A stretch of DNA of 64,000 nt from an uncultured virus (IMG/VR IMGVR_UViG_3300033808_000111) (IMGVR_UViG_3300033808_000111), one strand, 5' to 3'; positions 22,235-48,562 are shown, counted from the first letter of the stretch. The notes: generated by a model not told the origin, from the sequence alone. Made by a program: numbers and translations.

Positions 22235-22521
22235 AAGTGAGCTTCAGCAATCCTGGAAAGGTGCTCGGGATCCTTCGGACGCGCGAGGCGTTGCGGCATT
22301 CGGCTCAGACCTCGGACCTCTCGCGAGAGATCGCGACGCTCAAGCAGGAGACTTCGGATCTGGTGGGCGAGATCCGCAAGCTCAAAGTCGCGAATGCCGC
22401 GATGAAAGAGCTTCTCTCCGAAGTGGTGCAGCAGGCAGAGATCACCACGCGCCCGGTCTCTCCCGCGTGGCTCGAGCGGGCGAGGGCAATCTTGTCGAGT
22501 TCGAAGAGGAAAAAGTCATGA
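22231..22521 (+). CDS. coiled-coil hypothetical protein
   Basis: RBS GAGGAGG; ATGA overlap. Confidence 0.6.
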   Translation: MKVSFSNPGKVLGILRTREALRHSAQTSDLSREIATLKQETSDLVGEIRKLKVANAAMKELLSEVVQQAEITTRPVSPAWLERARAILSSSKRKKS

Positions 22522-22613
22522 ATCCGAGACCGAGCCGGAGGCGAGGGCGAACGACGAGAACGACCGAGCAGGGTCCTATCGAGCAAAGCGAGATGGGAGA
22601 GGGAAGGTCATGA
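22515..22613 (+). repeat. repeat family A, 92-bp form; mini-ORF 22518-22613
   Basis: GTCATGA-ATCCGAG..GGGAAGGTCATGA. Confidence 0.9.
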
Positions 22614-22858
22614 GTGGTTCTCCCAAGGATTGGAAGAGCTTCTCGCTCGGCGAGATGCTCACGGACGCCGAGATCCAGCGGGCGATCAACATCTGGCAGG
22701 ACGGCGGCCCGCGGGTCGCGCGCCGACTCTGCGACGAGGTCGTGCGCCCGGCGCTCGTGGAGATCAACCGCAAGACCGGGCAGGAGAACGACCCGATGTA
22801 CCTCGCCTACATGCTCGAGTACGTCTTCGAGCAGCAATCGCGTCGGAGCTTGAGTTGA
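22610..22858 (+). CDS. hypothetical protein
   Basis: EINRKTGQENDPMYLAYMLEY; start and RBS supplied by repeat A. Confidence 0.7.
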   Translation: MSGSPKDWKSFSLGEMLTDAEIQRAINIWQDGGPRVARRLCDEVVRPALVEINRKTGQENDPMYLAYMLEYVFEQQSRRSLS

Positions 22859-23190
22859 TGGGCCGCCGAATTGTTGCTCGGACCATCCGTCACATGGCGC
22901 GGTCCTCGAAGCTGAAGACTGACGCCGAGCGTCTCGGGGCGTACGTCGCCGGCTTCTTCGAGCGCCGCAAAAAGTGGCCCACAGTTCGTCAGTGCGCGCG
23001 CGCACTTCGCTGGACGCAGGCGCGCGTCGAAGAAGCGACCGGAGACGAGTCGTACGGCGGCAGGCTCTTCCTCTCGTCGCTCCTCTCGATGGTCGATTCG
23101 CCGCTCGGCGATCACTTCGTCGAGCACCTCGAGCTGATGAACCCGTGGAAGCAGCGCCAGCTCCGAAGAAACGGACCGGAGGGGTCATGA
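22858..23190 (+). CDS. putative HTH protein
   Basis: WPTVRQCARALRWTQARVEE. Confidence 0.55.
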   Translation: MGRRIVARTIRHMARSSKLKTDAERLGAYVAGFFERRKKWPTVRQCARALRWTQARVEEATGDESYGGRLFLSSLLSMVDSPLGDHFVEHLELMNPWKQRQLRRNGPEGS

Positions 23191-23258
23191 ATCCGAGGTC
23201 GGGCTGGAAGCCCGAGCGAACGACGAGAACGACCGAGCGAAGCGAGGGAAGGTCATGA
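23184..23258 (+). repeat. repeat family A, 68-bp form; mini-ORF 23187-23258
   Basis: near-identical to 36978-37052. Confidence 0.9.
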
Positions 23259-23839
23259 GCCACGAGCTTGATCCTGTCATCGATGAGCTGAAGAAGCAGG
23301 GCTTCATTCTCACGAAGACCTCTAACGGGCACTTCAGTGCCAAGAGCAAGACTGGCACGGGCGGGATCGTCCACTTCTCGTACTCGGGAGACATCTACGC
23401 GTTCCGGAACACCATTCGCGACCTCAAGAAGATCGGGTTCATCTGGCCTCCGCCGGACGCGCCGAAGAACGGCGCGGGTCCGTCGAGCAAGGCCGAGCCC
23501 TGCTGCACGCTCTGCTACAATAAGAACGGGTGCAAGGATGGAAGCTGCGCGTGCCATCTGCCGGCGAGCGCGTTCCAGCCGAAGTCCGCGCCGGCGGCGA
23601 AGCCGACGAGCGAGGAGCTTTTCACGGAGCTGACGGAGGCGCGTGTGATCCTCCAGGCTGCCGACGAGGCGCTCGCCCACGCGCGGAGCAAGCTCGAAGA
23701 GGCGAAAGACTCGCTCGCGCAAGCGGAGAAGGTGAGGGCCGACGCCGTCGCGACGTTCGCGGCGAGCAAGAAGAAGTTCGACGATGACATGCTCGCGGGG
23801 ATCGACCTCGGCGTGTCGAAAGAAGGAGGTCCATCGTGA
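23255..23839 (+). CDS. HicA-like N-terminal domain plus Cys cluster and coiled coil
   Basis: ELKKQGF.L.KT.NGH..D..AFRN..RDLKKIGF. Confidence 0.5.
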   Translation: MSHELDPVIDELKKQGFILTKTSNGHFSAKSKTGTGGIVHFSYSGDIYAFRNTIRDLKKIGFIWPPPDAPKNGAGPSSKAEPCCTLCYNKNGCKDGSCACHLPASAFQPKSAPAAKPTSEELFTELTEARVILQAADEALAHARSKLEEAKDSLAQAEKVRADAVATFAASKKKFDDDMLAGIDLGVSKEGGPS

Positions 23840-24975
23840 GGCGGAAAGCATTGCAGCTCGAGAGGCAGTGATGGTTCGAGAGAAGAAATCCCATGCGTCC
23901 CACACCTTCGAGGCTCACGCTTTGACCTTCGGTACTCTCGCCTCGGTCTTCGACGCGCATGCCGTGACCTTCGACGCACTCGCCTCGATGAACCCCCTCG
24001 AGCGGCTCGCGATTGCGACATGGCTAGAGGAACGCGTGGGCGATATGAGGGTTGATCGATCTTCGATCAGCGAAGAATACGGCGTCGATCTCGTCATGAT
24101 CCTTGACTTACTCACCAAGTCCATTCGTCTCGACTTGAGGAAAAGGACGAAGAAGTGATGAAGCGTTCGAAGCTGTTCAGTCGCGGGTTTTCTTATGGCA
24201 TGTGGACCGGTGGCCTCGCCACCAGCGCCTGCTTCTCGATCATCCAGGATGTCGCGGGTCCCGACGTGTACGCCGGTTGGGTGCTGCGCTACTCGACGTC
24301 GGGCGCGCGGGCGTGGTTCTTCGATGCGGTACTTCTTTTGCTCGCTTTGTGGCTCATCGTTGCGTCGTACCGCGAGTCGTTCCGCGTGGGTGCAGCTGGG
24401 AATGATGAAGGAGGGGAGTGATGCTCTTGGACGAGAGAAACAAGATTCATGCAGCGATCGAGGAGGCGTGTGAGAGCGCTGGTCTCGAGGTCGAGACGGG
24501 CGGCGGGTGGCAGAAGATGATCGGCGACGTAGTCGACGCCGGCGACGTTTGGGAGGTTCCCGTCGTCAGGATCAGTAAGCGGCGCGTAACGGGAGAAGGA
24601 CGATGAATCTCGAGTTTGGCTGGGTGAAGTACACAGTCGCTGCGCCCAAGAAGCCGGGCGAGCTTTACCTCGCGAAGCTCACCGATCATCCGATCCGCGC
24701 TTCCGCTCCGAGCGCCGCCGAGGCGCTCTCGCTCTGCTTTCAGGCGCTCGCTGCGAAGTTGAGCAACCCTTCTTTGGGTGAGATGGAAGAGAGGAGTCTG
24801 TGAAGAACGTTCGCGAAGGAAGAGTTCGTAGGTGTCGTCACAACGAGTGCATCTCTGCGAGGGCCGCGGAGCTTGCCAAGATGGGTCTTGTTCGACTTGC
24901 TGCCGAGCTTCACGCGCTCGGCTTGCCGGTCGAATGTCGACTTGCGGCTCCAGTGGTTGCGACAAAGAAGGTTGC

Positions 24976-25650
24976 ATGAGGGAGATCCACGTTATCTGGA
25001 CCTGCGGGCATGGCAGACAAACTCCGGAGGGTCTGCGTCGCATGTCTATGAGGGACAAGGGGTACGGCAAGGCGCTCCGCGTGGCGCTCAACTACGAGCG
25101 GACGTACGTGCTCGTCTTCGACGAGACTGCTCTCGATCGGATGATAAAGAAGACGCAGGAGGCGTTCGACAAGGGTCTCTCGATCACTGGCGCTGCTCTC
25201 GGTGTGCGCGCGTACCTATCCGTTCGCACTTCGATTGTGGATGTCTCCATTGGAGAACTGGGCGACTCCGTTGGAGAATCAAAATCAGAGCCGGCGGTTT
25301 TTCGCTTTGATGGTGTTTCGAGCGCGCACCACAACTGGCGAGGTATGAGCTATTTCCTGGACCCCGAGCTTGCTCCCGACGAGATCCGCGTCTTGACGGG
25401 CGACAGCGCCATCGAGTGGGCCCTCAGGCGTTCGTGCGCGGAGCATCCGGATTGTCTGCTCGAGCCGAAGCTTGCCAAGAGGTGTGCGGAGGAGCGCGAG
25501 CGCGCTTGGTCAGAGAAGAAGAAAGAGAAAGAGAGGAGTGCAGAAGAATCTATGAGCCCCGAGGAGATTTGCTGTCACGGCACGCCCGGTTGCGTCGGAC
25601 GCGGAGAGAAACATTGGTGCTCTCCGATTCACGGATTTCCCGTCACATGA
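24976..25650 (+). CDS. hypothetical protein with CxxHxDC motif
   Basis: CAEHPDCLLEPKLAKRC. Confidence 0.65.
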   Translation: MREIHVIWTCGHGRQTPEGLRRMSMRDKGYGKALRVALNYERTYVLVFDETALDRMIKKTQEAFDKGLSITGAALGVRAYLSVRTSIVDVSIGELGDSVGESKSEPAVFRFDGVSSAHHNWRGMSYFLDPELAPDEIRVLTGDSAIEWALRRSCAEHPDCLLEPKLAKRCAEERERAWSEKKKEKERSAEESMSPEEICCHGTPGCVGRGEKHWCSPIHGFPVT

Positions 25651-25919
25651 GCTGGCTCGATCCCGGACGCTGCTCGTCCTGCAAGCACTGCTCGATGGAC
25701 ATGGACATGGCGCCTTTCTGCTCTTACCCCGAGGTGCTCAAGATCCATCCTTGGGGCGTGAACCTGAACAAGGCGATCTCTGCGTTCTGCGGCGAGGACT
25801 TGAAGCTTCGAGAGCCGATGGATCCGCAGCGAAGCTGCGGAGCCGACTCTTGCCGGGAAGGGCTCGGAGAGCCCGTTATCGAGGAAGAGAAGCCGAAAGA
25901 AGAGAAGCCGTGCGGGTAG
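25647..25919 (+). CDS. Cys-rich hypothetical protein
   Basis: CSSCKHC..C..P..C; ATGA overlap. Confidence 0.55.
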   Translation: MSWLDPGRCSSCKHCSMDMDMAPFCSYPEVLKIHPWGVNLNKAISAFCGEDLKLREPMDPQRSCGADSCREGLGEPVIEEEKPKEEKPCG

Positions 25920-26464
25920 TGTTCCTCGACTTCGACGGCGTGCTCAACTCCTCGCGCTTCGCGCGCGAGAACCCCACGACGGGCACCTGGGGGCTCGACC
26001 CGAGCGCCGTCCGGATCGTGAGCGAGATCTGCGAGCGCGGCGCTGCTGAGGTCGTGATCTCGTCGTCATGGCGGATCGGTCGATCGCTTGGGCAGCTCAA
26101 GGACGCCCTGCTCGAGGTCGGGTTCCGCGGCACGGTGCGAGGCGCGACGCCGCTTCCCGAAGAGATGTGCAACGAGCAGCTCGCGACGCTCTTCGAGGAG
26201 AAGGGCTTCCACGCGAGCCCTCAAGAGATCAGGAAGATCGTCGTCGGCTACACGCGTGGTCGCGAGATCGATGCGTGGCTCAAGGCATGTCCGTGGGACA
26301 TCGAGTCGTTCGTCATCCTCGACGACGACAGCGACACTGAGCCTCATGTCGGTAGGCACGTCAAGACTACCCTCGCTGAGGGCATTCTCTCCGAGCACGT
26401 GGAAGAAGCGCTTCGGATTCTCGAGACGCCGTTGAAAGGAGACTGGTTGGGAGATGAGCCGTAA
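25910..26464 (+). CDS. HAD-superfamily domain protein (HAD_SAK_2-like)
   Basis: VFLDFDGVLNS, VISSSWR, RG.EI..WL, FVILDD. Confidence 0.9.
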   Translation: MRVVFLDFDGVLNSSRFARENPTTGTWGLDPSAVRIVSEICERGAAEVVISSSWRIGRSLGQLKDALLEVGFRGTVRGATPLPEEMCNEQLATLFEEKGFHASPQEIRKIVVGYTRGREIDAWLKACPWDIESFVILDDDSDTEPHVGRHVKTTLAEGILSEHVEEALRILETPLKGDWLGDEP

Positions 26465-26993
26465 TCTCTGCAAGCGCGACTGCTACTTCTGCGGCGGCGA
26501 GGTCAAGCTCACAGAGCCCGAGAGGCTCATCACGGAGGAAGACTGCGGGTCGATCTACTACCGATCCGACCGCTACGCTTACAGGGGTGCCGTCGTGGCG
26601 TTCGCCGAGTGCTCGGACTGCTGCGCCAAGTACCTCGCGTGGATCGATTTTTCGGCTTGTCCCGGGTACGGCGAGCACCCGTATTTTAATCGGAGCGAAC
26701 CGTTCTTCGACCTGTCGTTCCGCTCGACGTTCAACGATGAGCCCGGCGAGGCGGACCTGCCTGAGCACGAGATCGAGGTCGTGAGAGCCCGAAAGCCGTG
26801 GCCAGTGTGCGGTGCGTGCGGGAAGAAGATTTATCACTGTTACGGCTGCCAGTGTCCACGGTGCGAGGAGCACGAGGACTGCAAGGCACACCCCGAGATC
26901 GGTCGGACATGCGCGGAAAAGAAACACGAAGAAAGGATTACGTCTGCCGTGCGCGCCGCGGAGAGCGCCGCGGTGACGGAGGAGCGAAGGTGA
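26454..26993 (+). CDS. Cys-rich protein with CxxHxDC motif
   Basis: CEEHEDCKAHPEIGRTC. Confidence 0.75.
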   Translation: MSRNLCKRDCYFCGGEVKLTEPERLITEEDCGSIYYRSDRYAYRGAVVAFAECSDCCAKYLAWIDFSACPGYGEHPYFNRSEPFFDLSFRSTFNDEPGEADLPEHEIEVVRARKPWPVCGACGKKIYHCYGCQCPRCEEHEDCKAHPEIGRTCAEKKHEERITSAVRAAESAAVTEERR

Positions 26994-27055
26994 CCCATGT
27001 GGACGCGTAGCGGGCACATGCAAGGGCACCGAGTGACGAAGGAGCGAAGGTGATG
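26991..27055 (+). repeat. repeat family B, short copy; mini-ORF 26997-27053
   Basis: matches 7358-7482; GTGACGRAGGAGCGAAGGTGA repeated at 26973 and 27033. Confidence 0.85.
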
Positions 27056-27310
27056 GCGACGACGAAGGAAGATCTCGGCAGGTGGTTCGATGTGGGTGTG
27101 CAAGAAGGCGCGACGCACATGATCGTGGTCTGCGACTCGTTTAGCTACGACGACTATCCGGTTTACGTGAAGCCGTCCGAAAACGTTCGCGCGAAGTACC
27201 AGGAGTATCTCGACGGCAAGCACTCGATGCAGCGGGTGATGGAGATCTACTCGCTCAAAAAGCCCAAAGGGCCTCAGTTCGAGCAGCGCCGTGCATTCGA
27301 GTTCGACTGA
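27053..27310 (+). CDS. hypothetical protein
   Basis: W...G...GATHMIVVCDSF.YDDYPVYV..MQRVMEIY. Confidence 0.75.
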   Translation: MATTKEDLGRWFDVGVQEGATHMIVVCDSFSYDDYPVYVKPSENVRAKYQEYLDGKHSMQRVMEIYSLKKPKGPQFEQRRAFEFD

Positions 27311-27315
27311 TCCAC

Positions 27316-27540
27316 ATGTACGACGACTACGACGACCTGCTGGAAGAGCGCTACGCCGACATGATCGTCCGGTGCAGCAAGCACGCGGACTGCCGCGAGC
27401 ACCCGGCGCTGGGGCTCGAGTGCGCGAAGCGTTCAGGACAGACGGTTGATCGTCTCGCGGATCGCGCTTGTCCCTCGACCGACTTCGGCGACTACGACGA
27501 CTGGCGCAAGGCTTTTCCAGAGCTGCCGTGGGATGAATGA
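27316..27540 (+). CDS. small protein with CxxHxDC motif
   Basis: CSKHADCREHPALGLEC. Confidence 0.7.
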   Translation: MYDDYDDLLEERYADMIVRCSKHADCREHPALGLECAKRSGQTVDRLADRACPSTDFGDYDDWRKAFPELPWDE

Positions 27541-28184
27541 GGTTCGTTCTCATCAGCGACACGCACTCGCTCCACCGCCTCATCGAGGTGCCGGACGGCG
27601 ACGTCTTGATCCACGCGGGCGACATCACGCGCGAGGGCGAGGTCGACACCGTCTACGACTTCTCGATCTGGTTCGCGGGTCTGCCGCACAAGGAGAAGGT
27701 GGTCATCCCTGGCAATCACGACTTCTGTTTCGACATCTCGCACAACCGCTACGACGAGCTGGCGCGCAAGATGCTCGAGGATCGCAGGCCGAACATCCAC
27801 TTCCTCTTAGATTCGGCGCGTACCATCGCCGGGCTCCGCTTCTATGGCTCGCCGTGGGTCCCGAACCTCGGCGGCTGGGCTTTCTACGACCGTGGGCGCG
27901 ACATGTTCGACCGCGCTCCCACGGACATCGACGTGCTCGTGACGCACGCCCCGCAGTGGCTCGTCATGGACCGCGAGAAGAAGCGCGGCGAACACTGCGG
28001 GTCGACAGCCGTCGGGCGCTACGTGGGCCGCTGCCCGCGCCTCAAGCTTCATGTCTTCGGGCACGTGCACGAGGGCTACGGGACTTCGCCAGTCGGGCAG
28101 GAGCCGGTGAGGGTGAACGCTTGCTCGCTCAATCGGGAGTACGAGCCGGTGAACAAGCCCATCGTCCTCGACCTCGATTTCTAG
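27537..28184 (+). CDS. calcineurin-like metallophosphoesterase (MPPED-like)
   Basis: ISDTH, IHAGD, GNHD, VTH, GHVHE. Confidence 0.93.
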   Translation: MRFVLISDTHSLHRLIEVPDGDVLIHAGDITREGEVDTVYDFSIWFAGLPHKEKVVIPGNHDFCFDISHNRYDELARKMLEDRRPNIHFLLDSARTIAGLRFYGSPWVPNLGGWAFYDRGRDMFDRAPTDIDVLVTHAPQWLVMDREKKRGEHCGSTAVGRYVGRCPRLKLHVFGHVHEGYGTSPVGQEPVRVNACSLNREYEPVNKPIVLDLDF

Positions 28185-28219
28185 TTTCAGTTGCAAGGAC
28201 GCATGTTCCCGGAGGGAAC

Positions 28220-28253
28220 AGGCCGGGTCCCAGCGAGCGTGAGCGAGCAGGGC
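28220..28253 (+). repeat. repeat family D
   Basis: AGGCCGGGTCCCAGCGAGCGTGAGCGAGCAGGGC. Confidence 0.85.
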
Positions 28254-28314
28254 TTCGTTGTTAGCGAATCGCTAACGTTTTGCTGCGTCAGCAACCGTGC
28301 CAAGAGATAGGATG

Positions 28315-28352
28315 TGGATCGCGTTCGCCGAAGGCGGCGCGACCAAGTAAAG
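28315..28352 (+). repeat. repeat family E (TGGATCGCGTTCGCCG..GGCG.CGCG.CC hairpin)
   Basis: also at 29623-29698 (x2) and 33571-33610. Confidence 0.8.
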
Positions 28353-28359
28353 GGTTCCC

Positions 28360-28857
28360 ATGGAAGACGAGCAGAAGAAGCAGATTGCGGACCTCATGGC
28401 CTCGGCGGAGCAGGCGGGCGAGCGCGTCAAGAGCGCGCGCCGCGACTTCGAGGCCCTGCGCGAATCGATGATCGGTCTCTTGGGCTTCGAGCCCGGGAGC
28501 CAGCATGCGCACCTGCTCTCGGTGCAGCTCGAGGCGGCCTACGCGCACGGCCTCACGGCGGGCGAGGCCTCCCAGACGTCCGTGGCGTTCCAAGAACAGC
28601 AGCAAGTCCTCGAGCGCATGGTCCGGCACACCGAGGAGCGCGACGCGCGGGACCGCGAGCGCGCCGACGCTTCCCTCGCGCTCGACAAGCGCCGCGTCGC
28701 GGCCATCGAGCAGCAGGCACGCGACATCGGCAAGCTCGTCGTGTTGCTCTCCGCGAGAACGGCAACAGCGCGAAGCGCTGGGGCTGGGCCCCACGGAACG
28801 AATGTGATAAGGGCGGGCGCGTCCAAGGCATCTGCGGGAAAGCGAAAGAAGAAGTGA
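28360..28857 (+). CDS. coiled-coil protein with in-frame family C repeat at C-terminus
   Basis: ARSAGAGPHGTNVIRAG. Confidence 0.65.
   Translation: MEDEQKKQIADLMASAEQAGERVKSARRDFEALRESMIGLLGFEPGSQHAHLLSVQLEAAYAHGLTAGEASQTSVAFQEQQQVLERMVRHTEERDARDRERADASLALDKRRVAAIEQQARDIGKLVVLLSARTATARSAGAGPHGTNVIRAGASKASAGKRKKK
28768..28817 (+). repeat. repeat family C
   Basis: GCGCGAAGCGCTGGGGCTGGGCCCCACGGA..AGGGCGGG. Confidence 0.75.
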
Positions 28858-28858
28858 G

Positions 28859-29248
28859 GTGGGCGGAGGGGCGGACAGCATCACGTACGGCACCCACGAG
28901 GTCGGCGATTTCGCGGTCAGCGTCGCGCCGGCGGCTGGCCATGAAGCTGCGGATCCGGACGACTGCGACTTCTTCGAAGTGCTCGTCCACGAGGTGAAGT
29001 TTCGGGGGTCCGAGGTCCCGGGAGCGATGCCTTTTTACGTCAATATCGCCGCAGACGGTCGCTTCGATTGGTTCGGGCACTTCGGCAAGTTCGAGCGGAG
29101 GCTCACGCATGACGACCTCGTCGAGTACAACGCATGCTATTCGGCGCTCTTCCACAAGATCGCGATGCCGACGTGGAAGCTTTCGAGGCACTCGATGAAG
29201 CGTCTCTTCGACTTGTGTCGGAAGGCGAGCAAGAAGGCAAAGAAATGA
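28859..29248 (+). CDS. hypothetical protein
   Basis: fills gene chain; ATGA overlap. Confidence 0.6.
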   Translation: MGGGADSITYGTHEVGDFAVSVAPAAGHEAADPDDCDFFEVLVHEVKFRGSEVPGAMPFYVNIAADGRFDWFGHFGKFERRLTHDDLVEYNACYSALFHKIAMPTWKLSRHSMKRLFDLCRKASKKAKK

Positions 29249-29622
29249 CTCTGTACAGTGACGAGTTCAAGGTGCCTGCGGGCGTCGCGCGCTGGCCGGA
29301 CGGCGAGGCGATCCTCGTCCTTCGGCCCCAAAACGCACCCCTCGTTCTTGCTCTCGGGAAGATCGCCGTCGAGCACGACTCGCTCGAGGCGCTCCGCGAG
29401 GCCTGCACGTCTGGTCCCATGACCTTCATGGGGTTCCTGAAACGCATGACTCCGGAGGAGGCAGGCTGGGTCCCGGCGAGCGGGAGCGAGCAGGGCACGA
29501 AGAAGAAGGGGAAAAAGGAGTACGCCATCGTGGACGAGAACGGCGAGAACCCGCAGCCGCTCAAGGCGGGCGACACGTTCGCGTCGCGCCACGAGCTGAG
29601 CACCCATCCGCCGGAATCATAA
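29245..29622 (+). CDS. hypothetical protein containing an in-frame family D repeat (29463-29499)
   Basis: ATGA overlap. Confidence 0.6.
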   Translation: MTLYSDEFKVPAGVARWPDGEAILVLRPQNAPLVLALGKIAVEHDSLEALREACTSGPMTFMGFLKRMTPEEAGWVPASGSEQGTKKKGKKEYAIVDENGENPQPLKAGDTFASRHELSTHPPES

Positions 29623-29698
29623 TGGATCGCGTTCGCCGTTAGGCGACGCGGCCGAAAGAGTGGATCGCGTTCGCCGTTAGGCGACGCGGCCGAAAGAG
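29623..29698 (+). repeat. repeat family E, perfect 38-bp tandem x2
   Basis: TGGATCGCGTTCGCCGTTAGGCGACGCGGCCGAAAGAG twice. Confidence 0.95.
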
Positions 29699-29741
29699 AG
29701 GAGGGTGGACGGCTGAGGCCCGGCGTGAGATGATCTCTGCC

Positions 29742-29978
29742 ATGGCGACGAGACACGAGCCGGCGAGCGTTCTCGCGTACAGAAGGCGCGTTGGGCGTGG
29801 CAAGATCATGCGCCCCTCGACCTTTGAGAGCATCGTTCGAAAGACGATGCAACGTTACGGGTTTTCACGCTCACGCGCCGAGCGAGTCGCTGGTCGTGCG
29901 TATTGGCAAGCGGCAGAATCGAAGGCGCGCCGCGCCCGCGCTCGCCACCGCCGCACGCATCATTGGGAGGTACGTTAG
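29742..29978 (+). CDS. Arg-rich small basic protein
   Basis: composition; fills + strand gene chain. Confidence 0.6.
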   Translation: MATRHEPASVLAYRRRVGRGKIMRPSTFESIVRKTMQRYGFSRSRAERVAGRAYWQAAESKARRARARHRRTHHWEVR

Positions 29979-29980
29979 TC

Positions 29981-30247
29981 ATGGCAGGTTTCCTCGGAAA
30001 ACTCTTCGGTGGTGGTCCCGTCTCTGAGCGCACGCGTAGCCGCGAAGAAGCGGCGTGGCGCGAGCGGACGCGGCGCGAGCGCACCATGCGCGAGCAAGCT
30101 CGTCGGCGCGCGCACTTCCTCGGCGGCAAAAAGCACCGCGCGACGCACTGGCGCAGGCTCTACGAGATGGCCGGCAACGGCGGTCCCCTGTCCGAGCGCC
30201 TCCGCATGCGCGAGCGCCGTCACGCGCTCCATCGCTTCGGGCGATAA
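29981..30247 (+). CDS. Arg-rich small basic protein
   Basis: RBS GGGAGG; internal GGP[VL]SER repeat. Confidence 0.65.
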   Translation: MAGFLGKLFGGGPVSERTRSREEAAWRERTRRERTMREQARRRAHFLGGKKHRATHWRRLYEMAGNGGPLSERLRMRERRHALHRFGR

Positions 30248-30250
30248 GCC

Positions 30251-30565
30251 GTGGCCGGGCGCAAGAGGTACAAGCCTCGAGAGGAGCCGACCTGGGAGTC
30301 GCTCCGGGAGGGACTTGAGTTTCTCCCGCGGTCGTCTCGGCGCGGTCGGAGCCTTTGGCGGCGCGATCCCGAGCTTGCCGAGATCCGCCGGCGCGAGCTT
30401 GCGGCGCGCGCCAGAGAACAGAAAGCCACCCAGCACCGGAAAGCGGTGCTCAAGAAGAGGCAAGCTGTCGAGGAGTATCGCCGCACGCACGGCGGCGAGC
30501 TGCCCGGATGGTTCAGGAGATCGAGGGCACGCAGGCGTGCGCTTCATCTCGGGAGACGCCGATGA
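30251..30565 (+). CDS. Arg-rich small basic protein
   Basis: ATGA overlap with next gene. Confidence 0.6.
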   Translation: MAGRKRYKPREEPTWESLREGLEFLPRSSRRGRSLWRRDPELAEIRRRELAARAREQKATQHRKAVLKKRQAVEEYRRTHGGELPGWFRRSRARRRALHLGRRR

Positions 30566-30831
30566 TCCTCCTTCCGATCGCTTTCGCCGGTACTGGCCTC
30601 GGCTACTACGCGTTCGAGTCGTTTCGCAAGCCTGATCTCCGCGACGCGCAGGCCATGGTCCTGTGGGAGAAGCACATGAAGGGCGCGCGGTTCGCGGCCG
30701 TCGCGGGCGTGGGCGCGGGGCTCCTGCTCTGGCTCTTGACCCAAGACTCTGAGGAGAGCGTGCCGGAGTCGCTGCCGCCGTCTTGGCGAGCGTCCTCGGT
30801 GGCTTCCGCTCGATCCGCGAATTCGGAGTGA
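30562..30831 (+). CDS. two-TM membrane protein
   Basis: MILLPIAFAGTGLGYYAF..AAVAGVGAGLLLWLL. Confidence 0.6.
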   Translation: MILLPIAFAGTGLGYYAFESFRKPDLRDAQAMVLWEKHMKGARFAAVAGVGAGLLLWLLTQDSEESVPESLPPSWRASSVASARSANSE

Positions 30832-30838
30832 GGTCGTC

Positions 30839-31237
30839 GTGGCTAGGCCCGAGCACCTCCATCCCTACGGTCCGCGGCCCTCGAACTACGGTGAGATGCT
30901 CGCGAGGTTCAAGGAGCGGCAGAACCGTGACATCTCGAGGTGGACCCGCGACAATACCGACGCCGACATCGAGGACATGGCGCGCGGCGGCGACGGAGGT
31001 CCCGTGGGGGGCGGCGAGACCATCCGCTCGCGGTTCTACGGTCCGGACTGGTCGGATCGGGACTTCAAGGACCTGCTCGGCGAGCTTGCTGAGAACGAAG
31101 TGCGCCTGCGGATCGAAAATCTCGTACGCGAGACCGAGGAGCAGATCCGCTACATCGGCCACCAGGGGCGCCCGGCCGGGATCACGGAAGCCGAGGTGCG
31201 CGCGGCGGTCGTGGCAGCGCTGGGACGTGCACGATGA
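30839..31237 (+). CDS. MARxEHL-tag protein 2
   Basis: MARPEHLHPY; RBS GAGG. Confidence 0.85.
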   Translation: MARPEHLHPYGPRPSNYGEMLARFKERQNRDISRWTRDNTDADIEDMARGGDGGPVGGGETIRSRFYGPDWSDRDFKDLLGELAENEVRLRIENLVRETEEQIRYIGHQGRPAGITEAEVRAAVVAALGRAR

Positions 31238-31539
31238 GCGCGAGCGTGAAGCTTCGCGACAAGGCTTTCGAGAGGGCTCAAGTCGTGGCCGATGTCCTCG
31301 AGGAGGCAGGTTTCTACATCGTCACGCGGCCGTTGAGGCAAACGCGTGGTGCGCACACAAATGAGGTGTGGACTCGTGCGGCGTCTTCGTCTGCGATGCT
31401 GGATGAGGCGCTCATCGTGGTCAACGACGACGGGCGCATCGGTGTGTTTTCGGATTACTATCCGAGTCTCGAGATTCGTACGCGTGCAGCTTTCAAGAAA
31501 GCTGGCCTCGGCGAGTGGTTCGACGAGATGATGCAATGA
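31234..31539 (+). CDS. AEVLAD-domain family paralog
   Basis: ERAQVVADVLEEAGF..DDGRI..KKAGLGEWF. Confidence 0.85.
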   Translation: MSASVKLRDKAFERAQVVADVLEEAGFYIVTRPLRQTRGAHTNEVWTRAASSSAMLDEALIVVNDDGRIGVFSDYYPSLEIRTRAAFKKAGLGEWFDEMMQ

Positions 31540-31549
31540 GGAATCGCTG

Positions 31550-31969
31550 ATGGCCCGCCGAGAGCACCTCCATCCTTACGAGCGAGGCGTGCTCGTCGTC
31601 ACGAGCATCGAGTGGATGAACACCGAGGACAGCTACGAGCGCGGCGAGATCGGCCAGACGTTCACGGTCCTCGCCGAGGAGAACGTCGGCCGCTACCGGA
31701 CGCCCGCGGAGATGCGCCAGGACCTTATCGGAAGATTCGGTTTGCCAGAGGACCGGGACGCGTGGCTCGCGTTCGACGACGGTCGGATCGATGTTCAGTT
31801 TCAGGTGGACGTGGACAACAATCCGCCGACTGCGCGCGAGCGCGAGCGCTGGATGCGCGGAGAGACGCAGCTCTGGGCCGCGTACGTCACCATCCATTTC
31901 GTTGAAGCCTTCGAGGCTACGCCCTCTCGGGAGCGGATCGCCGAGATGTTCGGGATCGCGGAGGAGTGA
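31550..31969 (+). CDS. MARxEHL-tag protein 3
   Basis: MARREHLHPY; RBS GAGG. Confidence 0.85.
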   Translation: MARREHLHPYERGVLVVTSIEWMNTEDSYERGEIGQTFTVLAEENVGRYRTPAEMRQDLIGRFGLPEDRDAWLAFDDGRIDVQFQVDVDNNPPTARERERWMRGETQLWAAYVTIHFVEAFEATPSRERIAEMFGIAEE

Positions 31970-32229
31970 CGCGGCGCTTTCTTTCTGCTAGATGCCGGCG
32001 TTCTTTCGATGACCACGCCCATCTACGAGCCCGAGTTGACGTTTCTCCCGTTTGGTTGCCGCTGCGGCGCGCGATTCGTCCGAGAAGGAGATCTCATGCT
32101 TCATGAACGTGAGACTTGTCCTCGTCGTGGCGAGTGGAAGATAGGTCGCACGTCTTTCGTCTTCGAGATTCCCGGCGGTCGCGGCATCCACGATGGCGGG
32201 CGTCGGACTTGATGATGTAGACTCTTGCC

Positions 32230-32484: not shown

Positions 32485-32531
32485 GGTACGTCGAGTGGAG
32501 TGTCGCAGGTTCCGACGTCTGCTGTACCGAG

Positions 32532-38259: not shown

Positions 38260-38913
38260 ATGCTAGAAGCCATCACCATCTACATCTTGGGCGCGATGAC
38301 CTCTTGGATCCCCATCGGGAACCTGACTTATTGGGGTGAGACAGAAGAGCAAGCCCGCGCAAGACTCGAGTCGATCGCGAGCGATGTCGCGACGGTCGCG
38401 ACGGACGGCGGCGAGAAGTCCGCGTTCGCGGGACCGCTCGGGCGCGTCAAGTCGGCGCTCCTGCTCTCGTCGGTCGCGAGCATGGAGTCGGGTTTCCAGA
38501 AGTTCGTGGACGACGGGACGTGCAACAAGCCGGACTACCAGGCCGATCGGCGCGGCGGGTGCGACGGGCACCATGCTTTCTCCATCTGGCAGATCCACGT
38601 CGCGGGCGAGGGCTTCGTGCTGCTCGAGGACGGCTCGCTCTCGAGCAAGATGTACTCGAGCAAGGAGACCATCGAGCGCCTGGGCGTCGTGACCGGCAAG
38701 GAGCTGATCGCGGACCGCAAGGTCGCCGCGCGCGTCGCGCTCCGGATCATGCGCGATTCGCTCAAGAACTACGGCTCGCTCTGCGCCTACTCGGGCGAGG
38801 ACTGCGCGCCGGGAAGGCATCCCAAAGCCGACGCGCGCCTTGACCGCGCCAAGGCTTACCTCGCGCGGCATCCTTTCGAGATGCCAAAGGAAGAGGTTGC
38901 TTCGGCGCTTTGA
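38260..38913 (+). CDS. putative lysozyme-like / lytic transglycosylase-fold protein
   Basis: VASMESGF..D...A..IWQI motifs; hydrophobic N-terminus. Confidence 0.5.
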   Translation: MLEAITIYILGAMTSWIPIGNLTYWGETEEQARARLESIASDVATVATDGGEKSAFAGPLGRVKSALLLSSVASMESGFQKFVDDGTCNKPDYQADRRGGCDGHHAFSIWQIHVAGEGFVLLEDGSLSSKMYSSKETIERLGVVTGKELIADRKVAARVALRIMRDSLKNYGSLCAYSGEDCAPGRHPKADARLDRAKAYLARHPFEMPKEEVASAL

Positions 38914-38934
38914 CGTGAGCTAATTTGTAGCTCA
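38910..38934 (+). promoter_or_regulatory. inverted repeat TGAGCTA-N5-TAGCTCA (putative operator) over -10-like TAATTT
   Basis: immediately upstream of RHH gene. Confidence 0.55.
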
Positions 38935-39137
38935 TGGCTCGTCGCGCTGCTGAAAAGCTCACCGAGGTCATCTCGATGCGCCTCTCGGAGCGGGACAAAA
39001 AGCTGCTCGACTCCGCGGCCGCGTCGGCGCCGTTCATCCCTCGCTTGACGCTCGCACGCTTCGCCATGCGCATCGGACTCGAGAAACTCAAGAAGAAGCG
39101 TTCGATGCTCAAGGCCATCGCGGGATTGGAGAGCTAG
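38934..39137 (+). CDS. ribbon-helix-helix DNA-binding protein
   Basis: EVISMRLSERDKKLLD..TLARFAMRIGL. Confidence 0.7.
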   Translation: MARRAAEKLTEVISMRLSERDKKLLDSAAASAPFIPRLTLARFAMRIGLEKLKKKRSMLKAIAGLES

Positions 39138-39138
39138 C

Positions 39139-39366
39139 GTGATCACCTGGTGGCAGCTCTGCGCGTTCATGTACATGGCCGGCTTTTCGGTCACGTGCCT
39201 GCGCCTCTACCACGACATCAACGTCGATCGCCAGACATGGAGCAAGTGGTTCTCCGGTCGCCACGAGCCTGGTGTGGTCGTGGTCGTCGTCATGCTGGCG
39301 TGGTGGTTGATGCTCTTCTGGGAGATTCGTGATTGGCTCTCAGGAGAAGGCGACGAGGAAGACTGA
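39139..39366 (+). CDS. small membrane protein
   Basis: two hydrophobic segments. Confidence 0.55.
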   Translation: MITWWQLCAFMYMAGFSVTCLRLYHDINVDRQTWSKWFSGRHEPGVVVVVVMLAWWLMLFWEIRDWLSGEGDEED

Positions 39367-39393
39367 ATCAGAAAAAGAAAGGCATGGTGAGGC

Positions 39394-40095
39394 TTGCCGT
39401 TCGACAACTCCCGATCTCCGGACTTGAAGCACTTTGGAACCGTCACGCTCTCGCCGCGCGGAGGCGGCGAGATGGTGATCAGGGCCGAGGGCGCGTGCAG
39501 CCACCAGGACTGTTTCTTTTCTCCCGGCATGATGGCCGCGTGCATCAAGAAAGATGAAGCCCCCGCGCGCCTCCTCCCGACCCACTTCTCGTTCGCGACG
39601 TCGCCCGAGATCTTCGGCGACCAAAGTGATGAGGCTAGAAGGACTCGGGGGAATCTTGTTAGCCAGTTTCCGACGGATGCCAATCCGCAACGTTGGCGAG
39701 AACAGAATGAACAGGAGATGCGCGCGCTCGGTGCGCACCGGGATTCGTTCGCGTCGCCGGCGGACGTCTTCGTGCTCGACATCGAGGTCGACGGCGTCTC
39801 GATGTGTCAGGCGGCGCCCGCGCGGGCGCGGGCCGAAGGCGTCGAGATGCCGGATTACGAGCCGATGCACCTGTTCGATCTCCAGTGGATGCCTCTCGGA
39901 CAGGCTTACCGGCTGCCGGCCTTCTACTCGCTGCGCCTCCTGCTCGAGAACCGCTCGAAGAAGAAGGCGATCATCATGGGCACGGTCACGTGCAACGTCT
40001 GGACCCGGTGGTGGCTCGACGACGGCCCGGGGTTCCAGATGATGCGCTGGGACGTCGAGCAGCTGAAGAAGGACGTTGGTGAAAGCGTTGGGTAG
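39394..40095 (+). CDS. hypothetical protein
   Basis: fills gene chain; start uncertain. Confidence 0.6.
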   Translation: MPFDNSRSPDLKHFGTVTLSPRGGGEMVIRAEGACSHQDCFFSPGMMAACIKKDEAPARLLPTHFSFATSPEIFGDQSDEARRTRGNLVSQFPTDANPQRWREQNEQEMRALGAHRDSFASPADVFVLDIEVDGVSMCQAAPARARAEGVEMPDYEPMHLFDLQWMPLGQAYRLPAFYSLRLLLENRSKKKAIIMGTVTCNVWTRWWLDDGPGFQMMRWDVEQLKKDVGESVG

Positions 40096-42286: not shown

Positions 42287-42501
42287 TGCGTCGCAAGCTG
42301 ACGATGGAAGAGCGTGAAGCGTTGCCAGAGAGCGATCCGAGGAAGTACCAGATGACGTGTGATTGCGGATGGGAGAGACCTCACTTCGCAGACATTCTGG
42401 GCGAAAAGAAGAAGCCGCTCGCGATCCGAGAGTTTTGGCTCGTCTTCGACTGCCCGAAGTGCGGCGCTCGGTGGGAAGCTCACTATGGAGCCGTGTCATG
42501 A
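42283..42501 (+). CDS. small zinc-ribbon protein
   Basis: CDCG..CPKCG. Confidence 0.6.
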   Translation: MMRRKLTMEEREALPESDPRKYQMTCDCGWERPHFADILGEKKKPLAIREFWLVFDCPKCGARWEAHYGAVS

Positions 42502-44930: not shown

Positions 44931-45754
44931 CTTCCTCGAGCGCGGCTTCTTTGGGCAAGCAGGCCGGACAGTGGGCCCAGGTGTTCTCGGACGCTCTTTT
45001 GGAGCTGGGTTATGCCCCCGAGCTGAGGGAGCATCTGGGCGCTCGGCAAGTGCCCGGGGACCGAGTCTGGTGGGAGATCGCGATCTACGACCCGCAAGAG
45101 AGATGGGGCAGGGAGTTCGTCGGGGAGATCCGCGTCTTCGGCCACGGCGAGATCGTCATCTCGGACGAAGGGCAGCGGCCCGGCATCGCGCGCAAGGTCC
45201 TCGATGAGACCCGGCTCGGGTTCGAAGACGTCTCACCGGCGCTCGCGCAGGAAGCCGGCGCCGAGTTCGCGCAGGACAGCGCTGATGAGGTCGACTTCCA
45301 GTACAACCTGCGCGAGCAGCTCGCGGAAGGTGCGGAGATGGAAGCACGCGACCCGAAGAGCGTCGTCCCGGAGTTCACGACAGAGAATCTAGCGAGCAGC
45401 AAGCGCAGTCGAGAGCGGCTCGCACGCGAGATGCTCGAGGACTTCGGACGCGACGTCGCGCGCGATCTGGACACCGACACGGTCGAACGCTACTTCGAGC
45501 GTGTAGGACTTCCTTCGCGTGCCGCGCTCGATTTTTCGGCAGCATTTCTTTCTGGCATGCGTCGCGAGCTTGCCAGCAAGAACATGCGGGAGTGGCTCGC
45601 CGAGATGCACATACTGCCGGTCGTCGAGGCGATCCTCGCGAGTGCGCGAAGCGCGTCCGCTGGGCCCCGCGGAGGGAATCCGACGAGGGCGGGTGCGCGA
45701 AGCGCGCCCGCTAGGCCCCGCGGAGGGAATCCGACGAGGGCGGGGACGAGATGA
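44927..45754 (+). CDS. AEVLAD-domain paralog plus cargo shared with 46065; ends in family C tandem
   Basis: WAQVFSDALLELGY; LA.EAG...A..F..G.R..L. Confidence 0.82.
   Translation: MTSSSAASLGKQAGQWAQVFSDALLELGYAPELREHLGARQVPGDRVWWEIAIYDPQERWGREFVGEIRVFGHGEIVISDEGQRPGIARKVLDETRLGFEDVSPALAQEAGAEFAQDSADEVDFQYNLREQLAEGAEMEARDPKSVVPEFTTENLASSKRSRERLAREMLEDFGRDVARDLDTDTVERYFERVGLPSRAALDFSAAFLSGMRRELASKNMREWLAEMHILPVVEAILASARSASAGPRGGNPTRAGARSAPARPRGGNPTRAGTR
45642..45744 (+). repeat. repeat family C, 51-bp tandem x2 in frame
   Basis: encodes ARSAxAxPRGGNPTRAG twice. Confidence 0.92.
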
Positions 45755-46068: not shown

Positions 46069-46760
46069 TAAATCGTCGCGGATATGAGCAGGCCGCGGTG
46101 CTCTCGGACGTGATCGAAGAGCAAGGGTACGTCGCAATCGTTCAACAGACGCACAGCGGAGACTTTTTCGTGCTGGCCAAGCACAAGAAGTCAGGCGCTC
46201 CAGCAGCGGCGTTCTGGGTCTACGGCCCCGGCGACGTTAGCCTCGGCCTCTACGGTCGTGAGGAGGACATCCTTGGCAAGGCTGGTCTGTCACGCCTCGG
46301 CAAGGAGCGAGATCAAACGCCGCTGACAGTCGCGGAAAAGGAGAATCTGGCGTTCGAAGCGGGCAAGATCTATGCGAGTCAGGAGGTTGAGTCGGCAGCA
46401 TTTCTACGTCGCGTGACCAATGAAATCGAGATTTCTACGACAGAACTCTGGTCGCGCGCGAACGAACTCTGGAACAGATCAGAGCTTCGCGATCAGTTCG
46501 CGCGAGGCTTGATCACTGGGCTCGGGCAGCAGATGGAGCAAGCCGGAGTAGCGCCGCGAGCTTCGCAGGATCTCAAGCGAGCAGGTCTTTCTCTCGAGGA
46601 TCTGCGAGGGACTTCCATCGGTGCGGAGTTCTGGCGCGGAGTTCGCGATCGTCTTGGACAAAAGAGCACGCAGTCCTTCGTCGCAGATGATCTCGTCATG
46701 CCGGCTTTGGAGGAGATCCTTCTGCGACGACGAGCGAGCAGTCGCGGAGGAGTACGATGA
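46065..46760 (+). CDS. AEVLAD-domain paralog plus cargo shared with 44927
   Basis: QAAVLSDVIEEQGY..KAGLS; LAFEAGKIYA..FWRGVRDRL. Confidence 0.82.
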   Translation: MINRRGYEQAAVLSDVIEEQGYVAIVQQTHSGDFFVLAKHKKSGAPAAAFWVYGPGDVSLGLYGREEDILGKAGLSRLGKERDQTPLTVAEKENLAFEAGKIYASQEVESAAFLRRVTNEIEISTTELWSRANELWNRSELRDQFARGLITGLGQQMEQAGVAPRASQDLKRAGLSLEDLRGTSIGAEFWRGVRDRLGQKSTQSFVADDLVMPALEEILLRRRASSRGGVR

Positions 46761-47518
46761 CCGCCGCACTCGAGGCGCCGGGTTTCCACGGAAGCCGGAG
46801 CTTCGACAACCCCGAGTGGGTGAAACTCGAGCTTGGGGCGGAGCTTGGCGTGCGTCCCGAGCTTCTCGAGGCGCGAGCAGACGAGGGTTTTGTCGCGCCC
46901 GCGTGGGATATCTCGCGTCGCGACTGGGAAGACGTCGTCGGGCCCACGGGTTGGCGCGTCGTTCGGTCGCATGAGGACGAGCGGCAAATCGCGCGCGATC
47001 TCCTCGCGTGGGTCTTCAAGAACGAGCCGGACTTCTTCAAGGAAGAGGTCATCGAGATGCTCGTCGATCAAGACGCGCTCCGGGACGTGCTCCGCTCGAG
47101 GCTCTTGCCGGAGGTTCGCAACCAGATGCGCGCGGCTGCCAGAAACGACATTGAATGGTTCTGGGAGTACTTCGATCAAGCCAAGCTCGGGAAGAAGGTG
47201 CGCACAAAAGAATGGTTGCCGGAGCCGGATCTCGACGACATCGAGCGCGCTTCCCGCCATGAGGTCGAAAAGCAGATCCGTCATCCTGTGAGCGCCGTCG
47301 TGGATCGCTACGGTCGTTCCGACCCTGACGGCATCCGGGAGGCGGCGAGGCTCGGGCGCCTCGATCCGAAGAAAGCGGCCGAAGCCGTACTTGCTGGCAA
47401 GACAGGCTTGCCGACTCGTCCCGGCTACTGGCTCTACCAGCTCAGGGAGTCGAGCGACCCGCACGGAAGGACCTACGAGACGCCGTCGCTCTACGTCTTC
47501 TGGGAGTGGTGGGGGTGA
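46757..47518 (+). CDS. RETPSG family paralog
   Basis: SFDNPEWVKLELGAELGVRP..VDQDALRD..YETPSLYVFW. Confidence 0.85.
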   Translation: MTAALEAPGFHGSRSFDNPEWVKLELGAELGVRPELLEARADEGFVAPAWDISRRDWEDVVGPTGWRVVRSHEDERQIARDLLAWVFKNEPDFFKEEVIEMLVDQDALRDVLRSRLLPEVRNQMRAAARNDIEWFWEYFDQAKLGKKVRTKEWLPEPDLDDIERASRHEVEKQIRHPVSAVVDRYGRSDPDGIREAARLGRLDPKKAAEAVLAGKTGLPTRPGYWLYQLRESSDPHGRTYETPSLYVFWEWWG

Positions 47519-47850
47519 TGACCTCTTCGGCGGCAGCGATTCGCGGCTGGACGGACCGGGAGGCCGAGGAGGCGGGCGACGCTGACGGTCGTGCCTGGGC
47601 GCTCCGGACGATGCTCGCCGGTTCGGACGCGCTCGCGCGCTACGCCTCGGGTGCGGGCGAGAGGCGGCAGATGGCGCAGAAGATGGAGACCCTGATGCAG
47701 ATCGTCGCGCGGCAGAACGTCCGGCGTTTCGGGGCGAAGGACAACGCTCGGCGCGAGAGCAAGGTGCACCTCTACGTCGAGGCCTATGTCGCCGGCGCGA
47801 TGGAGGAGCTTGGTCGCGAGGCTTCGAGGCGCGGGGTGGAAGTTCGATGA
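47518..47850 (+). CDS. hypothetical protein
   Basis: coupled on both sides. Confidence 0.6.
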   Translation: MTSSAAAIRGWTDREAEEAGDADGRAWALRTMLAGSDALARYASGAGERRQMAQKMETLMQIVARQNVRRFGAKDNARRESKVHLYVEAYVAGAMEELGREASRRGVEVR

Positions 47851-48431
47851 CTCCTTCAGCGCGCGCCTCGGTCCTTTCGGACGCGATGGAGGAGCTTGGC
47901 CTCGAAGCCTATGTCCACGCGGCCTCGTATCCGAAGAACGCCAAGTACGTGATCGTAGACGAGCCTGCAAACGTTCCGCAGGGCAGAACACGGATGCACT
48001 TGTTTATGGCCCTTCTCACCGAGGACGACTCGATCGTGACGTGGGACGCCGAGCCGATGCGACCGGGACTTGCGCGGGAGCTTTTGTCGCGCGCGGGTCT
48101 CTGGAAGTTCTTCGAGCCCAAGAAAGTCACGTACGATGTTCACCTGGTCGAGTGGGACCTCGGCGGCAATCCTCGTCCGAGCAGAGATTCCATCGGACAA
48201 GTTGAGATCTGGACCGGACGCCGCTGGAACTCTCTCGAGACTGAGCTGCTCTTGTCTCTCGAAAAGTCTCTCCCGGGAGTGACTCGTGATCTCGAGGCTG
48301 TTGATCCTGGTGATCTGGGCGGCGTGCCGCTTGCGCAAGCAGATGCGTTCGACTTGCCGAGACGCATCGAGCTGAGAGAGCGCAGGGGAGAAGGCATTTG
48401 GCGTTTCGAGCTTCGAAGGGTGTTGAAGTGA
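47847..48431 (+). CDS. AEVLAD-domain paralog plus cargo shared with 48559
   Basis: RASVLSDAMEELGL..RAGLWKF; GN..SIG..PR....R......FEL. Confidence 0.82.
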   Translation: MTPSARASVLSDAMEELGLEAYVHAASYPKNAKYVIVDEPANVPQGRTRMHLFMALLTEDDSIVTWDAEPMRPGLARELLSRAGLWKFFEPKKVTYDVHLVEWDLGGNPRPSRDSIGQVEIWTGRRWNSLETELLLSLEKSLPGVTRDLEAVDPGDLGGVPLAQADAFDLPRRIELRERRGEGIWRFELRRVLK

Positions 48432-48562
48432 ATCCGAGATCGAGCTGGAAGCTCGAGCGCCTTTGCGGCGAAGCCGCGACGGCGTCTCCTGCTGCGAAGA
48501 CGCCGGAGGCGTCGTTAGCAAGAACGACGCGATGGACTGACCGTAGGGACGGAACGTCGTGA
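48428..48562 (+). repeat. repeat family A, expanded 131-bp variant with extra hairpins; mini-ORF 48428-48562
   Basis: GTGAATCCGAGATCGAGCTGGAAGCTCGAGCG..AACGACG..GGAACGTCGTGA. Confidence 0.75.

Follow-up and report, generated by a model that had tools for sequence, protein, structure and literature searches.

In Cluster K mycobacteriophages, short repeats known as SAS and ESAS occur in one orientation a few bases before the starts of non-structural genes and carry a ribosome-binding motif (PMC3203893). As described in that report, the SAS have a 13-bp consensus located 3–7 bp before the starts of unrelated genes, approximately half of the sites also possess an upstream inverted repeat, and a role in translation initiation has been suggested (PMC3203893). 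SAS/ESAS are the closest known kind of repeat to the element considered in the current study, a family of short intercistronic repeats, designated family A, which is present in five copies in a 64,000-nucleotide stretch of DNA (the window, by which the whole stretch is meant) from an uncultured virus (IMG/VR IMGVR_UViG_3300033808_000111). Family A follows the position rule given for SAS and shares with them the single orientation and the unrelated downstream genes. Its sequence, in contrast, differs from the 13-bp consensus, its hairpin covaries whereas the SAS inverted repeats were reported not to support RNA pairing (PMC3203893), and a stop/start overlap delimits it on either side so that it retains a short open reading frame (mini-ORF), unlike SAS as they are described there.

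Two further systems invite comparison. The PeSL of T4-type phages are small repeated cassettes of a promoter and a terminator stem-loop located between non-essential genes, and recombination between copies results in gene shuffling (PMC2839356). Family A is likewise a repeated stem-loop cassette between genes, but unlike PeSL as reported it sits between coupled cistrons, its hairpin lacks a T run (a U tract in the RNA), and at none of the four copies in the scanned range, 20000–39999 (copy 5 lies outside it, at 48428), was a promoter-like or terminator-like site detected. Engineered bicistronic designs (BCDs), as generally laid out, place a second ribosome-binding site (RBS) in the 3' coding part of a short leader cistron whose stop overlaps the next start, and family A has the same layout; unlike those synthetic parts, which are placed at 5' ends, it occurs naturally, in several copies and between cistrons, has a start of its own that overlaps an upstream stop, and carries a conserved hairpin. 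Translational coupling between genes with overlapping stop and start codons is described in a review as falling off quickly, over distances under 20 nt (PMC12548453), so that translation of a spacer would make a difference; the account of coupling given there does not include a portable, repeated spacer cistron of the kind that family A may represent. A literature search combining translational coupling, intergenic repeat and phage returned no match, and no wider search was made.

Based on the present analysis, family A is a real and unusually precise repeat family which is portable and frame-keeping, but probably not a transposon. The explanation that we prefer, albeit tentatively, is that it acts in the sense-strand mRNA as an intercistronic cassette, which has spread through recombination at short homologies and whose 3n+2 length keeps a relay mini-cistron. 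The cassette would be specific to the lineage of a GC-rich, phage-like genome and would consist of the overlap, TGAATCCGAG, the hairpin, a spacer, and a Shine–Dalgarno-like (SD-like) motif followed by a start codon overlapped by a stop codon. Since the start-to-start distance is always 3n+2, the whole cassette can be read as one short cistron: a ribosome finishing the upstream gene would restart on the mini-cistron within the stop/start overlap, melt the hairpin, read through the embedded RBS and stop on the start of the next gene. A structured spacer would thus be tolerated in a tightly coupled operon without uncoupling it, and untranslated RNA exposed to polarity would presumably be avoided. 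The selected core would be the GGA-loop hairpin, with a stem that drifts by compensatory change and a fixed loop, while copies would be gained and lost by recombination at the [AG]TGA junction homology, extended to 7–15 nt where the neighbouring ribosome-binding module matches, without a transposase being required.

A core pattern built from the invariant positions of the repeat gave five matches in the window, all on the + strand, at 22519, 23188, 36982, 37050 and 48429; none (0.00) were expected by chance and the pattern was never matched in 100 shuffles. An nhmmer profile (--max) and a covariance model with filters off recovered exactly the same five copies, the best non-member match reaching 17 bits (E 0.057), from which it follows that the window holds no intragenic or opposite-strand copies. 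The copies and their surroundings are as follows.

22518–22613, + strand: copy 1, period 92 nt.
22518 (ATG) to 22611–22613 (TGA): mini-ORF of copy 1, its start overlapping the stop of the upstream ORF, which ends at 22521.
22528–22548: hairpin of copy 1; its SD-like motif is at 22599–22607.
22610–22858, + strand: ORF downstream of copy 1, its ATG at 22610 overlapped by the mini-ORF TGA.
23187–23258, + strand: copy 2, period 68 nt; the upstream ORF, 22858–23190, has its stop in the ATGA at 23187–23190.
23197–23217: hairpin of copy 2, a 7-bp stem with a GGA loop; its SD-like motif is at 23244–23252.
23255–23839, + strand: ORF downstream of copy 2, its start in the ATGA at 23255–23258.
36652–36984, + strand: ORF upstream of copy 3, its stop in the ATGA at 36981–36984.
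36981–37052, + strand: copy 3, period 68 nt, 97% identical to copy 2.
36991–37011: hairpin of copy 3; the copy is flanked by a direct repeat of 11 nt.
37049–37052: ATGA common to copies 3 and 4, which lie in tandem.
37049–37144, + strand: copy 4, period 92 nt.
37059–37079: hairpin of copy 4, with one U-C mismatch; a second small hairpin lies within the extra 24 nt.
37141–37497: ORF downstream of copy 4, starting at ATG 37141; the SD-like motif is at 37130–37138.
47886–48431, + strand: ORF upstream of copy 5, its stop in the GTGA at 48428–48431.
48428–48562, + strand: copy 5, period 131 nt, diverged.
48438–48458: hairpin of copy 5, with one compensatory pair change; a 63-nt insert adds two hairpins, one with a GGA loop.
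48559–49107: ORF downstream of copy 5, from GTG 48559; the weaker SD-like motif is at 48546–48555.

The left [AG]TGA contains the stop codon of the upstream ORF at all four independent left ends, the fifth left end being the tandem neighbour, and the ORFs that end at the left borders have good coding signal. On the right, the [AG]TG is in four of four cases the earliest codon at which the downstream ORF could begin once the preceding in-frame stop has been passed. The motif GAGGGAAGG precedes the downstream start in four of the five copies, copy 5 having a weaker purine-rich motif instead, and the SD-like motif ends 2 nt 5' of the start codon. The first-pass annotation of this DNA had proposed five copies at these places, with periods of 92, 68, 68, 92 and 131 nt that are each 3n+2, and an RBS supplied by four of them; all of this was recovered. 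Its rule that every copy begins and ends at a stop/start overlap holds for each junction of the window and breaks down, as a strict rule, only at a sixth copy, described below, whose left GTGA is intragenic.

This sixth copy lies outside the window. A strict pattern search had no match in viral_contigs or genome_contigs, and metagenome_contigs yielded a single contig, L001, a related 3.6-kb sequence whose Ku gene is 70% identical in DNA to that of the window. Its family A copy is 68 nt in length and scores 88.5 bits, so that all six periods are 3n+2. Loci matching a looser pattern (12 viral, 120 genome) were also considered as members; by nhmmer none belongs to family A, and the best score, 17 bits, derives from the pattern itself.

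The aligned copies have the same order of modules, i.e. TGAATCCGAG, hairpin, spacer, and ribosome-binding module with start codon. The 10-mer TGAATCCGAG is unchanged in all six copies, and so is the GGA loop on a stem of 7–8 bp. Four of the eight stem pairs have changed on both sides; 90% of alignment cells are paired, compared to 23–45% when the partner is slid by one to three columns, and the covariation score was matched by 5 of 500 shuffles. The same GGA loop is presented on three fully paired stems. Ten of the 11 differences between copies 1 and 4 fall within 19 nt of hairpin, and the stem appears to be the fast-changing portion of an otherwise near-identical element. As judged from these alignments, the covarying GGA-loop hairpin, which had been missed by the first-pass annotation, is the best-supported candidate for a functional part, and the change of stem sequence with pairing kept argues for a single-stranded hairpin over a double-stranded operator. 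Our guess is that it may act as an mRNA stability or processing signal, or as a protein-binding signal with two GGA sites.

A rival reading is a translational-regulator cassette, in which a CsrA-like or phage-encoded protein would grip the loop GGA and the RBS GGA and control the downstream gene. CsrA targets have such a two-site layout, a second GGA lies within the SD-like motif of all six copies in addition to that of the loop, and the 63-nt insert of copy 5 brings a further GGA-loop hairpin. We nevertheless regard this possibility as very unlikely: no CsrA-family protein was found among the 128 predicted window proteins, the loop is one base short of the CsrA consensus, and GGA-loop hairpins are not enriched across the window (48 seen, 48 +/- 6 simulated).

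Each window copy constitutes an open frame with a start in the left overlap and a stop in the right overlap, and by sequence the BCD-like relay layout, with its own start, an embedded second RBS and a stop overlapping the next start, is present in five of five. The first-pass annotation had also emphasised that these frames contain no internal stop. The frames are indeed open, yet when spacers were shuffled with ends and length fixed the frame stayed open in 56% of cases for 92 nt, 68% for 68 nt, 30% for 131 nt and 15% for the tandem pair, so that missing stops are weak evidence and, for the 68- and 92-nt copies, close to what chance provides. The only informative feature is length modulo 3. 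The length classes, which keep the relay mini-ORF as had been claimed, are separated by two indels of +24 and +63 nt, both multiples of 3 (chance 1/9), and in the 131-nt copy 5 the relay frame alone is free of stops.

An open frame with start, stop and, in four of the five window copies, an upstream SD-like sequence might also denote very small protein-coding genes for peptides of 23–44 aa. This is extremely improbable, for the peptide is not conserved: copy 2 and the L001 copy match at 11 of 23 residues, the changes tracking stem pairing, while the differences between copies 2 and 3 are non-synonymous. The relay chain itself is not confined to family A. Among 40 same-strand gaps of 20–300 nt, it was found in 10, compared to 3.5 +/- 1.5 in shuffled gaps (maximum 8 in 300 shuffles), the ten comprising four family A loci, copy 2 of another repeat family (family E, see below), a non-repeat 11-codon bridge, three small-gene-like cases and one trivial case. 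The bridge, at 23836–23871, spans a 31-nt gap with an ATGA overlap upstream and a TGATG overlap downstream.

Concerning the manner in which the copies have spread, the genes that flank different copies are unrelated by BLASTP, so that the copies did not arise by segmental duplication and the family is independent of its flanks. A GTCATGA duplication had been noted at four copies, and GTCATGA does flank four of the five window copies, with the palindromic TCATGA present in four of the six overall; it is not, however, a constant 7 nt. Among the four young copies the flanking direct repeat measures 7, 8, 11 and 15 nt, and in each of the two diverged copies it is reduced to the 4-nt GTGA; a range of 4–15 nt is incompatible with a fixed-length target-site duplication. 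Unoccupied GTCATGA stop/start junctions are found at the following places, the second, third and last having been noted before, at 20888, 33679 and 61277, and the other two (at 16425 and 42498) being additional.

16422–16428: unoccupied GTCATGA junction.
20885–20891: unoccupied GTCATGA junction.
33676–33682: unoccupied GTCATGA junction.
42495–42501: unoccupied GTCATGA junction.
61274–61280: unoccupied GTCATGA junction.

TCA, which accounts for 3.3% of A-ending codons, is the last codon in 8 of 36 ATGA-ending genes (P = 2e-5); once the three genes that adjoin an element are set aside, the count is 5 of 33 (P = 0.0045), all five preceded by G, which bears out the over-representation of this junction type. 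These five junctions may serve as acceptor sites or mark places from which a copy was lost. However, the most frequent stop/start overlap is CGATGA, at 10 of the 36 ATGA-ending genes (CGA makes up approximately 10% of A-ending codons), and junction words may therefore be biased for other reasons.

These observations bear on a non-autonomous transposon, MITE-like (miniature inverted-repeat transposable element) or hairpin-dependent, which an enzyme would insert at the TCATGA of junctions with duplication of GTCATGA. Such an origin would explain the four GTCATGA-flanked copies, the 89–97% identity between copies in unrelated contexts and the GTCATGA enrichment at other gene ends. X1, a DNA sequencing run labelled peat metagenome, adds to this; it is probably the source of the window DNA and the sole public run found to contain it, with no RNA run among the matches. 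Its contigs break at the repeats and further copies with other flanks are seen among the loose ends (6 of 58 listed), and a DDE transposase gene is located in the window at 55202–56515. We consider it quite unlikely all the same. The direct repeats vary as given above, one additional X1 copy has CGATGA rather than GTCATGA at its left junction, and no terminal inverted repeats were found beyond the palindromic TCATGA, the inner ends matching at just 2–8 of 20 positions. Within the 64 kb of genome searched, neither nhmmer nor the covariance model detected element similarity near the DDE transposase gene, and none of the 128 predicted window proteins has a Y1, RAYT-type or integrase (tyrosine recombinase) domain, leaving the mobilising enzyme that had been postulated without a match in the window. 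Variable repeats that reach into a common ribosome-binding module fit short-homology recombination better than a transposase.

Comparison with known repeat classes follows the same lines. REP/REPIN sequences (REP, repetitive extragenic palindromic) are high-copy chromosomal palindromes found in operons, often as inverted pairs, and linked to RAYT transposases; REP acts on mRNA stability, and where a hairpin follows a stop codon closely the gene ending there can be affected. Family A resembles REP in being a covarying hairpin repeat with all window copies between ORFs, and differs in being low-copy and always direct, with no Y1 transposase domain among the window proteins. It is unlike a MITE in having no terminal inverted repeats, no fixed-length duplication and no autonomous relative sharing its ends in the 64 kb, and unlike integron attC sites, which come one per cassette with conserved R boxes and an integron integrase, in occurring as five copies per ~128 genes with no tyrosine recombinase domain in the window.

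The L001 copy provides the clearest view of a change of context. Its left GTGA is not a stop codon but lies out of frame inside an ORF of the sigma-70 family (regions 2 and 4), which reads through the element and 31 further codons with an in-frame G+C content at third codon positions of 0.8–0.97. A protein search returned seven clear homologues of this sigma protein, and all seven end 20–24 residues past an invariant Arg-Glu that in L001 is encoded by the very bases forming the left border of the element. BLASTP against the closest homologue, P0003 (78% identity), aligns the two without a gap to exactly this Arg-Glu and then ends, with 22 and 52 residues left beyond the alignment. The homology break indicates that the element occupies the place of the native sigma tail, with the joint at an intragenic GTGA. 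As far as these sequences show, the element changes context and its left joint follows a 4-nt word rather than gene boundaries, suggesting recombination at [AG]TGA even off junctions; selection would then have removed from the window all insertions other than those at true junctions.

L001 and P0003 form the nearest filled/unfilled comparison, at protein level only. No X1 contig bridges the site of an element in an empty state, and the empty and filled alleles that had been envisaged are therefore represented by this protein pair alone. Copies at non-junction sites, which had been named as evidence against the original proposal, are absent from the window and present, on the left side, in L001. 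The notion of a mobile element thus survives in that the repeat has moved between contexts, as seen at the left border in L001, while a transposon-like mechanism is not supported, given the lack of terminal inverted repeats, the variable repeats and the absence of a matching enzyme from the window.

Descent of the element from the sigma-factor C-terminal tail was considered and is not supported. A profile of the seven tails fails on the window copies (six-frame search; best family A rank 14, E 3.8), tblastn matches are weak, and because the profile misses the window copies such descent is not claimed. A search for the DNA of another sigma homologue, P0009, was negative in G001, in 401 genomes of its class and in 127 genomes of its order. 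Behind the element in L001, within 1141–1236 and 940–1140 (minus strand), a promoter-like TTGAAT...TATATC is located 5' of the Ku gene; the window Ku gene has a different upstream region, which contains a copy of family D7 (see below).

The break at the element border in L001 would also be expected if family A were a passive recombination joint without function of its own, copied during gene-cassette shuffling as for PeSL in T4-type phages. Two direct copies bracket the two-gene block 22610–23190, copies 3 and 4 lie in tandem, and the copy 1 hairpin is chimeric, its 5' arm resembling copy 5, its 3' arm resembling L001 and a tandem G.A mismatch lying at the centre; the concentration of its differences from copy 4 in 19 nt of hairpin points in the same direction, as does the ribosome-binding module held in common with family E, whose copy 2 is flanked by a 14-nt repeat. 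Compensatory stem changes with an invariant loop argue instead for selection on the hairpin, and the single orientation throughout and the frame-keeping indels are equally at odds with a joint devoid of function, which we view as unlikely.

Several observations weigh against the frame-keeping RNA cassette that we prefer. Modelling a ribosome at the upstream stop leaves the predicted accessibility of the downstream start unchanged: with natural flanks, the values for RBS and start did not change when the stop region was forced open (0.52/0.51, 0.42/0.41, 0.41/0.41, 0.37/0.34 and 0.36/0.36). The open frame of the 68- and 92-nt copies is expected in 56–68% of shuffles, the 3n+2 rule amounts to the two family A indels (1/9), or three with family E (1/27), and was recognised post hoc, and the peptides that the mini-ORFs would encode show no conservation (copy 2 and L001 agree at 11 of 23 residues). 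The read-through of the L001 sigma ORF implies that the relay is not universal, and the sample of six copies from two contigs (five in the window and one in L001) is a limit. A more specific mechanism, in which TCAUGA-TCAUGA pairing is relieved by the terminating ribosome to unmask the downstream start, was rejected, as it failed the accessibility test and the pairing is absent from the two diverged copies; in folds of the isolated element, the ends do pair.

The window contains additional repeat families, which are located as follows; the sister families that have modules in common with family A had likewise escaped the first-pass annotation.

7358–7482 and 26991–27055: family E, two copies with a body different from that of family A.
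14836–14886, 28762–28812 and 45638–45739: family D7, the last being two tandem 51-nt units that start at 45638 and 45689.
17517–17567, 28208–28258, 29451–29501 and 52691–52792: family D3, at gene ends and in intergenic regions, the last being two tandem 51-nt units.
28205–28221: 7-bp GGA-loop hairpin of one D3 copy.
28318–28355 (approximate): single unit of a 41-nt hairpin-bearing repeat, ahead of the ORF starting at 28360.
29623–29704: tandem pair of the 41-nt repeat, after the ORF ending at 29622.

Compared by eye, the right-hand ribosome-binding modules of families E and A agree at about 22 of 26 positions. Each family E copy has an ATG 3 nt past the upstream stop, and the frame opened there runs as far as a TGATG in which its stop and the start of the following gene overlap; there is a 60-nt difference between the two copies, and the mini-ORF frame alone is without stops. 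Taken together, the three indels of families A and E are all multiples of 3, for which we would infer a chance of 1/27 before the missing stops are counted, the comparison being post hoc. The D7 hairpin has 10 pairs and a GAA/AAA loop; in five of the ten pairs both partners have changed, and there are several G.U pairs, which fits a sense-strand RNA. D7 also contains GGAGGGAATCCGA, resembling the tandem junction of family A minus GGTCATGA, and the ORFs upstream of it continue through the repeat and terminate at the following start or close to it. A portion of the D3 unit is similar to the 24 nt inserted in the 92-nt copies of family A. It is conceivable, though we think it unlikely, that family A is a portable frame-tuned cassette, a selfish or domesticated RNA module that could be pasted into any coupled stop/start overlap, and that the sister families are alike in this; if so, a hairpin signal could be carried between gene pairs without disturbing their expression.

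The window has a base composition of 61–65% GC and, by a codon-usage ORF model, ~128 genes, mostly small and nearly all on the + strand, with many junctions formed by ATGA, GTGA or TGATG overlaps. Phage-like Pfam/PHROG matches include an SNF2-type helicase, Ku, dihydrofolate reductase, NUDIX, a metallophosphatase and a phrog_6077 protein (19536–20888). The last has only a distant relative, 49% identical, in L002, a 411-kb viral contig of 44% GC that has this single gene in common with the window. We take the window to belong to a large phage-like genome with a GC-rich host. No relatives were found in viral_contigs for the ORFs 23255–23836, 48559–49104 and 22858–23187 or for the sigma alignment, the phage collection gave no match, and neither did Rfam and tRNA searches. 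Other features of the window are given below.

35229–35258: 10-nt unit repeated three times in tandem, directly 5' of the RBS of the ORF starting at 35274.
35535, 36137, 36667, 43639, 44969, 46086, 47859, 48586 and 51935: examples of a 46-nt repeat, the nine copies of which reveal, between 35.5 and 52 kb, a multigene family whose small protein products share a conserved N-terminal motif.
54083–57904, minus strand: gene island with a DDE transposase bearing a SWIM finger (55202–56515) and an adjoining NikA-like ORF.

The genes on either side of copies 3/4 and of copy 5 each include one copy of the 46-nt repeat. The island at 54083–57904 is probably an inserted mobile element.

Tight overlaps between genes abound in phage genomes, where regulatory RNA structures added between genes may break coupled translation. 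If the reading preferred here is true, a relay-cistron repeat would offer nature's simple way of adding such structures while coupling is kept, would correspond to an expression part that has so far been engineered, and would be a compact part for trial in synthetic operons. Family A would, in addition, provide a concrete model for the way in which short junction homologies move modules, and perhaps gene cassettes, in large phage genomes.

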